Shown: piece after piece, positions 10,117 to 11,622 of the stretch
Layout of the letters: each line of letters starts with the position of its first letter
Numbering within the stretch: the stretch's first letter is position 1
Assembly (NCBI RefSeq): GCF_044324875.1
Contig: NZ_CP172185.1
Strand: one strand, 5' to 3'
Source: Escherichia coli
GTDB taxonomy: Bacteria > Pseudomonadota > Gammaproteobacteria > Enterobacterales > Enterobacteriaceae
Length of the DNA stretch: 64,000 bases
The notes under the pieces: model-generated
What the model was told of the DNA's origin: nothing
The model's input: only the letters and a program-made list of their open reading frames with translations
Databases searched by the model: none
Made by a program: the position numbers and the translations under genes

Positions 10117-11622
10117 TCATGGCATGGCCATGAGCATTTTCACGTCCGCATCACCGTCTGCTGACGTCTGTGGCACGCCACCCTGTACCGCTGCCGGTGA
10201 ATGGTTCGCCATGAAATGTTCAAACATGGCGGTTGTGGATGCAGAGACCGGTTCTGCCTTACCTGATCCCGCAGCCAGCACAGCCCGGGCGTTCTCCACG
10301 GTCATTCCCGGGCAGGCAGCCAGCTGTTCAGCCTGCGCCTCAGCCCCTTTTGCCTCATCCAGGGCCATGATCTGATCACGGAGTGATGGTCCGGCATCCG
10401 CCTGCGGTGAAGCTGCCAGGATCGGGCGGGCTTTTTCCACCGTCATCTCCGGCATCGCCGCCAGCGTTGCCGCCAGTTGTTCACGACCTTTCGCCTCTTC
10501 ACACGCCATAATGCGATCGGCTTCACTCTGCGCGGATGCCACCGGCTGCTGTGGTGCCGCCGCGGCCAGGATCTCCCGGGCCTGTTCAACGCTCATGCCC
10601 TGTTGTCCCGCCAGCATCGTGGCAAGCTGTTCACGTCCTTTCGCTTCCTTACTCGTCAGGATCCCCATCACTCGCTGGTTCTCCTGCGCGGCGGCTTCCG
10701 TTGCAGTTAATTGCGGCATAGTGCCTCCTGTATCATGTGTGTACAGCGCCGTGGTCATCACACTGATGGCATCCGACGCATTGACTAATTCATCCGCCAG
10801 CCCGGCCTCAATGCCGGACTGACCTTCAAAAACGGCGGCCTCTGTTCCCGTGACCACATCCACAGACAGCCCGGTATACATCGCCACTTTTTCGGCAAAC
10901 ATCCGGTGTGCCGCATCAATGCGCTGCTGCATGTCCTGACGCACCTCTTCCGGTAAGGCTTCAAACTGATTGCCATCCACCTTGTGCGCCCCGGCATAAA
11001 TCAGCGTGATATCCACACCGGCCTGCGCCAGATGACCGGCATAGCTGAGATGGCTCATCATCACGCCAATGGAGCCGATACGGGATGTCTGGGTAACCAG
11101 CCGTCGGGAGCAGGCCGACGCCAGCAGCATGGCTGCAGAACAGGCCGTGTCATTGCACACTGCCCAGACCGGCTTCTGCTGACGGAGGCGGTAAATCATG
11201 TCAGCGCAGTCAAACGCGCCTGCGGCCTGCCCGCCCGGACTGTCAATGTCCAGCAGTACGCCCCGGACAGCGGTGTCCGCCATTGCCTGCTGAAGACAGG
11301 CGACAATGCCGTCATAGCCTGTCATTCCGGAAAATGGCCGCATACCACCCAGCCGGTGCACCAGCATGCCGGTCACCGGCAGTACAGCAATACCGTTCAC
11401 CACCCGGTAAACACGGGCCGGTCGTTTACCTCCGGCCATGTACTCGTCCGTTTCAGCCAGCATTCCGGGAGCATCAAGCTGTACCTGCTGTTGTGGTACC
11501 GAAAGACTTGCTGCCCCCATCTCGCGCCCGAGCGCGCAAAAGAAAACCCGCGCATAGGCGGGCTCCAGAAGCAGCGGTTCATTGAATGCTGCGGCAATAA
11601 TGTGTGAAAGATTACGTCTCAC
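10117..11622 (-). CDS. C: Prohead protease/scaffold protein C (S49/ClpP-like N-terminal protease region; C-terminal scaffold with three tandem ~39-aa repeats; Nu3-like product probably nested)
   Basis: ORF track, 501 aa, between portal B and D; internal repeat EAKGREQLA...PGMTVE.AR.ILAA x3. Confidence 0.8.
   Translation of the reverse strand: MRRNLSHIIAAAFNEPLLLEPAYARVFFCALGREMGAASLSVPQQQVQLDAPGMLAETDEYMAGGKRPARVYRVVNGIAVLPVTGMLVHRLGGMRPFSGMTGYDGIVACLQQAMADTAVRGVLLDIDSPGGQAAGAFDCADMIYRLRQQKPVWAVCNDTACSAAMLLASACSRRLVTQTSRIGSIGVMMSHLSYAGHLAQAGVDITLIYAGAHKVDGNQFEALPEEVRQDMQQRIDAAHRMFAEKVAMYTGLSVDVVTGTEAAVFEGQSGIEAGLADELVNASDAISVMTTALYTHDTGGTMPQLTATEAAAQENQRVMGILTSKEAKGREQLATMLAGQQGMSVEQAREILAAAAPQQPVASAQSEADRIMACEEAKGREQLAATLAAMPEMTVEKARPILAASPQADAGPSLRDQIMALDEAKGAEAQAEQLAACPGMTVENARAVLAAGSGKAEPVSASTTAMFEHFMANHSPAAVQGGVPQTSADGDADVKMLMAMP

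Follow-up and report, generated by a model that had tools for sequence, protein, structure and literature searches.

Tri-box repeats in a phage 21-type prohead protease/scaffold gene: copies of a module widespread in lambda-family scaffolds, with a proposed tethering role

What are the three repeated segments near the end of the prohead protease/scaffold gene of an Escherichia coli prophage, and how freely does their number change? The gene lies at 10117-11622, on the minus strand, of a 64,000-nt stretch of E. coli contig NZ_CP172185.1 (assembly GCF_044324875.1), which we call the window and to which coordinates refer; it has a GTG start and encodes 501 amino acids (aa). An earlier note, written from the letters of the window, had described three tandem repeats of ~39 aa (~117 bp) at 10250-10620, in the scaffold part of what it took to be a lambda C-like gene, and had suggested that slipped-strand events might vary their number and tune scaffold length.

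Repeat searching and alignment find three homologous units in the C-terminal third of the protein, starting at aa 314, 367 and 414, all on the minus strand like the gene itself. The core of unit 1 (aa 314-357, ENQRVMGILTSKEAKGREQLATMLAGQQGMSVEQAREILAAAAP; 10552-10683) is joined by linker 1 (aa 358-366, QQPVASAQS; 10525-10551) to the core of unit 2 (aa 367-407, EADRIMACEEAKGREQLAATLAAMPEMTVEKARPILAASPQ; 10402-10524), and this in turn by linker 2 (aa 408-413, ADAGPS; 10384-10401) to the core of unit 3 (aa 414-452, LRDQIMALDEAKGAEAQAEQLAACPGMTVENARAVLAAG; 10267-10383), after which comes a single-copy C-terminal tail of 49 aa (aa 453-501; 10120-10266). With cores of ~39-44 aa and linkers of 6-9 aa rich in Pro, Ala and Gln, the period is 47-53 aa (141-159 nt), so that the ~39 aa and 117 bp given earlier describe the core and not the repeat; the repeats do lie in the interval first proposed, except that it clips unit 1, which extends to 10683.

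The similarity among the units far exceeds what composition would give. Local BLOSUM62 scores for pairs of protein units are 80-102, against 26 +/- 5 in composition-preserving shuffles (z = 10.7-15.0), and none of 2000 shuffles reaches them; local DNA alignments of the pairs score 20-39 where codon shuffles give 9.7 +/- 1.6 (z = 6.5-19; 0/1000). With no shuffled control attaining the scores of the actual units, the repeat is genuine and composition does not account for it, and the claim of three tandem units in the scaffold part stands. As to whether it can be seen in the DNA, the answer is mixed: a repeat finder returns one family of three copies of 97 nt, 65-70% identical and spaced by 141 and 150 nt, but the in-register core DNA of the copies is only 54-64% identical, and Tandem Repeats Finder (TRF), run on window positions 9500-12000, detects no array across the repeats, whose copies have drifted too far apart at the DNA level for it to register.

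These segments already have a name. Aligned along its full 1,506 nt, the gene has 96.5% identity with gene 5 of phage 21 in GenBank M81255.1 ("Bacteriophage 21 head gene operon"), a record that annotates, inside gene 5, an in-frame gene 6 provided with a separate ribosome-binding site, together with three repeat_region features, "Tri1 box", "Tri box" and "Tri3 box", each given as "function unknown; putative". Transferred to the window, the boxes fall at 10549-10652 (Tri1), 10402-10512 (Tri) and 10258-10371 (Tri3), and so coincide with the three units found independently here, the cores of units 1 and 2 including the Tri1 and Tri boxes and that of unit 3 overlapping the Tri3 box; at the phage 21 locus itself (L001) the boxes that map onto our units occupy 1642-1755, 1786-1896 and 1933-2036. 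This alignment equates the three repeats with the Tri boxes of phage 21 genes 5/6, a feature already known, and given 96.5% identity to a record that carries them the finding is a rediscovery. The two loci share the nested gene with the same ribosome-binding site and three repeat segments at corresponding positions, and differ only as alleles do (~5% of residues). M81255, presumably a deposit of the 1990s, offers no fold or family context for the boxes. A newer phage 21 record, OL657228, names the products "capsid protease/scaffolding protein" and "scaffolding protein". It also annotates two "CII binding site" pattern matches (ttgynnnnnnttgy) in the scaffold-coding part, at about 10467-10480 and 10701-10714 of the window on the plus strand; these annotations, on the strand opposite the gene, are probably bare pattern matches.

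To place the boxes in a family, we searched a three-unit profile against 1.84 billion representative proteins, of which 461 cluster representatives match at E<=1e-3. Among the best 150 of these 461, one copy is present in 130 and two or three copies in 19. Lambda, N15, phi80, 434, HK225 and others have one. The module spans ~40 aa, with the consensus ERxRxxxILxxxEAKGRExLAxxLAxxPGMTVExAxxILAAAP, in which I8, E13, A14, G16, R17, A21, L24, A25, A35 and L39 are conserved in at least 90% of sequences. It lies at a steady distance from the end of the protein (median 51 aa from the last module to the C-terminus in 52 proteins of at least 380 aa); Peptidase_S49 is found in all ten long representatives scanned; and a distant relative keeps the gene order terminase, W, portal, S49, D-like, Phage_cap_E. 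These sequence comparisons identify the unit as the conserved core of lambda-family scaffold/protease C-termini, present once in lambda, N15, phi80 and most relatives. Curated libraries do not have it: Pfam gives no match at E<=1 past aa 291 of the 501-aa protein, NCBIfam none on the 200-aa scaffold that makes up its C-terminal part, and a sequence search of the PDB with that scaffold returns 0 matches at E<=10. A profile of 100 modules does hit the PDB, in de novo designed helical repeats (4yxx dTor_6x35L and TRP designs) and otherwise in noise, and we read these hits as an idealised helix-loop-helix pattern rather than as homology; the matches run through ...LGVSLEQALKILEVAA, and the natural module resembles an idealised helix-loop-helix design. 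Several module-bearing open reading frames (ORFs) are chimeric (among P0153, P0157, P0162, P0181 and P0121: Nu1 with S49, S49 with tail protein L, tape-measure protein with S49, and a methylase-like N-terminus followed by three modules), and are presumably deletion derivatives of prophages or vectors.

The module is predicted to be a compact three-helix mini-domain that would fold on its own. AlphaFold2, given an alignment of 100 diverse modules, models unit 1 with a predicted local distance difference test score (pLDDT) of 93.3 and a predicted template modelling score (pTM) of 0.70, with helices at residues 2-9, 18-25 and 32-41. In the viral structure library BFVD, the three best hits all belong to further S49 prohead proteases of phages, a cyanophage enzyme among them, at query-normalised template modelling scores of 0.78-0.89 and 34-38% identity. 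A single-sequence model of the whole 200-aa scaffold again has helical units, with low confidence in linker 1 (residues 57-64 of the model, predicted disordered), linker 2 (residues 104-110) and the last 27 residues; its pTM of only 0.24 means that the units are not predicted to be fixed relative to one another. The models thus suggest modules on flexible Pro/Ala/Gln linkers, beads on a string rather than an extended rod. A Foldseek search of the PDB with this low-confidence model found nothing better than E=1.9, and we disregard that result. By secondary structure prediction and pLDDT, the tail is mostly disordered, with one short predicted helix (TTAMFEHFMANHS) and then an acidic, disordered terminus (...DADVKMLMAMP), a pattern that in alignment resembles the tail of lambda and N15.

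Over 39 distinct three-unit alleles, with pairwise comparisons pooled and phylogenetically non-independent, the ratio of nonsynonymous to synonymous substitution rates (dN/dS) is 0.11, 0.17 and 0.10 for the cores of units 1, 2 and 3, against 0.79 for linker 1 and 0.30 for the tail. All three cores are under purifying selection. Divergence among the copies at the DNA level is extensive: the longest exact word they have in common is 7-9 nt, about half of the identical residues between units are coded by different codons, and third-position differences dominate. Unit 1 of the window is 66-75% identical to unit 1 of three diverged three-unit relatives (P0121, P0122 and P0124) and 48-56% identical to units 2 and 3 beside it; unit 2 is likewise position-orthologous for P0121, at 71%. 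Because unit 1 is closer to the relatives' unit 1 than to its own neighbours, the triplication predates these lineages, and by this measure it is old. The three-unit layout is kept in relatives at 41-75% module identity. The same three diverged relatives retain, in unit 3, the Arg of the conserved EAKGRE motif.

What kind of protein carries the modules? Its S49 (SppA-like) serine protease domain, at aa 146-291 (10750-11187, minus strand), matches Pfam PF01343 Peptidase_S49 at E=5e-36, with 124 bits against a cut-off of 24.9; the NCBIfam model SppA_dom also matches the domain, below its own cut-off, and phrog_53, a head maturation protease, covers the protein end to end (E=3e-223). Inside the gene, a Shine-Dalgarno sequence, AGGAGG, lies at 10724-10729 on the minus strand, homologous to the site annotated as the ribosome-binding site of phage 21 gene 6, and 4 nt past it an ATG (M302) opens an in-frame gene of 200 aa (10117-10719, minus strand), the homologue of phage 21 gene 6 and of lambda Nu3 and N15 gene 6. 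Its product would be acidic (20.6 kDa, isoelectric point 4.7) and rich in Ala (46 of the 200 residues). The nested coding sequence is annotated in both phage 21 records, M81255 and OL657228, N15, like phage 21, has the homologous start annotated, and lambda carries the AGGAGG ahead of its homologous ATG. These signals indicate that the 200-aa C-terminal part is probably also made separately, as a Nu3-like scaffold, from an internal start. The PHROGs that match the scaffold are unnamed or head-related, with phrog_8399 (head scaffolding protein), 8940 and 17040 each matching it in three stretches. As the earlier note had it, all the repeats fall in the scaffold part. The scaffold region (10117-10800) is matched at 100% in NZ_CP033635.1, from a chicken isolate.

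Gene order points the same way. The ORF list gives a minus-strand, lambda-type head operon, the head module of a phage-21-type lambdoid prophage, which runs from the large terminase (13391-15376) through a W-like gene (13201-13407) and the portal (11612-13204, 530 aa) to the 501-aa gene, and on to a D-like gene (9733-10080, 115 aa), an E-like major capsid gene (8647-9675, 342 aa) and FI- and FII-like genes; the labels Phage_portal_2, D/HDPD and Phage_cap_E for the portal, D-like and E-like genes were taken from near-identical loci. The 501-aa gene thus stands between portal and D/E, its lambda-type position. Protease domain, head maturation family and gene order agree with the earlier reading of a lambda C-like protease/scaffold gene, and on every feature that sequence can address the gene is a member of the lambda gpC/Nu3 family.

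Comparison with the single-module members brings out what is peculiar to the 21 type. Lambda gpC/gpNu3, N15 gp5/gp6 and phi80 gp5/gp6 have a homologous S49 protease, a nested scaffold sharing its C-terminus, the same position between portal and D/E, an internal Shine-Dalgarno sequence and ATG at GG(R/T)M, and a similar C-terminal tail; their module is 57-63% identical to units 1 and 2 of the window. In lambda and N15, however, this single module is preceded, after the internal start supported by a Shine-Dalgarno sequence, by a low-complexity segment of 45-50 aa rich in Thr, Ser, Ala, Gln and Asp, whereas the 21 type has no such segment and adds two more modules after the first. The capsid protein E of lambda is 58% identical to that of the window over the first 262 aa, which were compared, and D is 49% identical. 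In the lambda record OR974322.1, nu3 is annotated from MDATRQ (position 5132; 201 aa), with no Shine-Dalgarno sequence upstream; the start at MTKETQ (position 5342), which has AGGAGG before it and is homologous to the gene 6 starts of phage 21 and N15, would give 131 aa, and by this homology may be the true start of lambda Nu3.

How variable, then, is the number of units? Among the 120 closest protein clusters, we found forms with two units (451/452 aa), with the middle unit cut short (482 and 472 aa), with three units (491-501 aa) and with four (551 aa), together with a 657-aa form. The natural deletions remove or truncate unit 2. Loss of 150 or 147 nt in register, with GCCCG and CACC as the bases shared at the junctions, produced the two-unit forms in two independent events; the 482-aa form has lost 57 nt and the 472-aa form 87 nt, the latter with a word of ~7 nt (GGCGGCA, identified by eye from the flanks) common to the two sides of the junction. 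Such variants occur in E. coli and Shigella prophages, with junctions at microhomologies of 4-7 nt. One two-unit allele, P0114 (E. coli O157:H7 strain 7636, CP038421.1), sits in a decayed prophage in which Nu1 is truncated and borders on a transposase of the IS66 family, a terminase is missing from the gene calls, and E is cut to 88 aa beside the tail tube gene.

The larger forms call for caution. The four-unit proteins (P0002 and P0003, 551 aa) were rejected as an expansion: their duplicated 150 nt are identical at 150 of 150 positions, each copy ends in an N (gene nt 1323 and 1473, at L006:5323 and 5473 and at the same gene offsets in L011), and they come from two assemblies of one project, so that the form is probably an assembly artefact. 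Behind the 657-aa form, in one complete genome (E. coli CP007136.1, L009:4813-5748), is a stretch of 468 nt duplicated in tandem, with 466 of the 468 positions identical; the form has a second internal Shine-Dalgarno sequence and ATG, roughly five and a half units, and the junction GCTGAGGC(C/G).

To gauge how common the variants are, we applied junction-specific probes of 38-39 nt to complete E. coli genomes. The gene region is present in 1,869 of 5,426 genomes and occupies 2,920 places in them; for the 21-type scaffold region a single genome has as many as 5 places, and 8 places lie on plasmids. The 57-nt deletion junction was found in 56 genomes and each two-unit junction in one, 58 in total against the 2,920 places (~2%). 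The best 80 loci in IMG/VR all have a scaffold of 200 aa with three units, as does every full-length phage isolate (19-20 phage records). Hence the comparison of repeat number among related prophages that the earlier note proposed does turn up two-unit and truncated-unit forms, but against a nearly uniform background of three, and its suggestion of copy-number change holds in that in-frame deletion variants exist, though they are rare and lend it weak support overall. Copy number is changeable, but rarely and through microhomology events; three is nearly fixed, and the array is not hypervariable.

What might the modules do? On balance we lean, a little beyond even odds, towards the reading that they are folded protein-binding units that tether the scaffold and the protease during prohead assembly, with three contacts per chain. 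The modules would be the folded parts of an otherwise disordered scaffold and would hold it, along with the protease that shares its C-terminus, to the inner face of the growing shell. The likeliest partner would be the major capsid protein (gp7/E), with other scaffold chains or the portal as possible partners. Three modules per chain would make a trivalent scaffold where lambda has one contact, the S49 protease would then degrade the scaffold after assembly, and illegitimate recombination or slippage during replication, at microhomologies of 4-7 nt between one unit and another, would generate the rare copy-number variants. The mechanism is proposed by functional analogy with P22-type scaffold motifs. 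Helical or helix-turn-helix (HTH) scaffold motifs bind the capsid protein in P22, phi29, SPP1 and 80alpha (PMC11565965; PMC11922011), and lambda Nu3, which incorporation of the portal requires, gives two-hybrid interactions with E, C and itself (PMC3224144; PMC10275583).

The analogy has bounds. The C-terminal coat-binding HTH of P22 gp8 (like the motifs of phi29, SPP1 and 80alpha) resembles the module in being a small helical stretch close to the C-terminal end of a scaffold that is acidic and for the most part disordered, but it has two helices where the module is predicted to have three, and it is neither triplicated nor followed by a 49-aa tail. We detected no sequence or structural similarity between the P22 coat-binding domain and the module, which would thus be a functional analogue at most. 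In herpesvirus UL26/UL26.5 and phage P2 gpO, protease and scaffold likewise have a common C-terminus, so that one interaction brings the two into the procapsid; their protease folds and scaffold sequences are unrelated to those of the window, and we know of no tandem domain repeats in them. Staphylococcal protein A, the GA module and Ebh/Embp offer binding modules that are three-helix bundles in tandem; they belong to surface adhesins rather than to proteins of virion assembly, and resemble the module in fold class only (5-20% identity, no homology).

Four points weigh against the tethering reading. Unit 3 has EAKG-A-E in place of EAKG-R-E, and so is without an Arg that at least 90% of the family conserve. 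Lambda gpNu3 is reported to be intrinsically disordered (Medina and colleagues, 2011), which sits uneasily with a confidently folded module, a conflict tempered by the fact that the module accounts for only ~40 of the residues of lambda Nu3. By analogy with the scaffolds of P22 and herpesviruses, capsid binding would be expected at the extreme C-terminus, which here is the separate, single-copy tail. Finally, the third contact may be dispensable, since the unit count is down to 2 or 2.5 in some persisting prophages whose head genes are otherwise intact (one such type occurs in 56 complete genomes).

The third of these points leads to a serious alternative, which we consider unlikely but well worth keeping in view: that the single-copy tail is the shell-binding site, with the units serving scaffold-scaffold association or portal recruitment and making no direct contact with the capsid. 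The pattern of the tail is common to lambda and N15, and herpesvirus scaffolds carry their capsid-binding element at the extreme C-terminus. The coat-binding element of P22 is placed in the same way (PMC11565965), and the self-association of lambda Nu3 and its requirement for portal incorporation (PMC3224144; PMC10275583) suit the roles that the units would then have. Yet the tail is mostly predicted to be disordered, and its dN/dS (0.30, vs 0.10-0.17 for the module cores) marks it as the faster-evolving part.

It could instead be that the two extra units are tolerated redundancy, left by a historical duplication without added function, one module being enough. Lambda, N15 and phi80 work with one copy, deletion variants persist beside intact head genes, and the conserved Arg has been lost from unit 3. 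We think this improbable, given that all three cores, over the 39 alleles, have dN/dS values (0.10-0.17) below those of linker and tail, that the three-unit layout is retained at 41-75% module identity, and that ~98% of places keep three units. Moreover, the 21-type scaffold is without the ~45-aa N-terminal low-complexity segment of lambda and N15, and the extra units are therefore not simply additions.

Less probable still is a slippage-prone array in which a readily changing copy number would tune scaffold length and so head assembly or size. There are in-register two-unit deletions and truncated-middle-unit variants with independent junctions, a genome with the 468-nt tandem duplication, and other lineages with 2-3 copies, some of them nearly identical (P0127, P0131, P0132), which points to recent duplication. 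A contingency locus of this kind is characterised by near-identical head-to-tail DNA units and by frequent copy-number polymorphism among close relatives; here the core copies are 54-64% identical, with at most 9 nt of exact sequence in common and no array for TRF, and are therefore not a slippage-prone array, and polymorphism is confined to ~2% of places, with three units in all phage isolates and in the 80 best IMG/VR loci. The four-copy form, in which both assemblies, from a single project, show an N at every junction, does not help the case. Nor do the units look like extended spacers, being predicted globular. Capsid genes beside the variants are full length (342 aa) and 93.6-95.6% identical to that of the window (95.6% for the phage 21 capsid gene), and capsid proteins are of similar length, 341-342 aa, in lambda with one unit and in the 21 type with three, both of which have T=7 heads. 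Slippage as a high-frequency mechanism is largely refuted.

That the similarity is a chance, Ala-rich resemblance or a DNA- or RNA-level element is next to impossible: although the scaffold part is rich in Ala (46/200) and CII-site pattern matches are annotated there, the shuffles (z = 10-15 for protein, 6.5-19 for DNA), conservation at the level of amino acids with synonymous differences at identical residues, and the recurrence of the module in 461 protein clusters refute it.

The reading of the Tri boxes as tethering modules can be taken further, in a form that we regard as possible and rather doubtful. The module would then be an uncatalogued, independently folding three-helix family and the actual shell- or portal-binding element of all lambda-type S49 protease/scaffolds, and phage 21-like lineages would have swapped the disordered N-terminal segment of lambda for extra copies, raising valency from 1 to 3 per chain.

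As a finding, the Tri-box repeats themselves matter little, since they are already in the phage 21 record and the prophage type is present in about one-third of complete E. coli genomes. What is added here is that the module is widespread in lambda-family scaffolds, is in no curated library and is predicted to fold autonomously. It offers a concrete target for work on how lambda Nu3 and gpC contact shell and portal, and the natural versions with 1, 2, 2.5 and 3 units form a series in which the effects of scaffold valency on prohead assembly may be followed.

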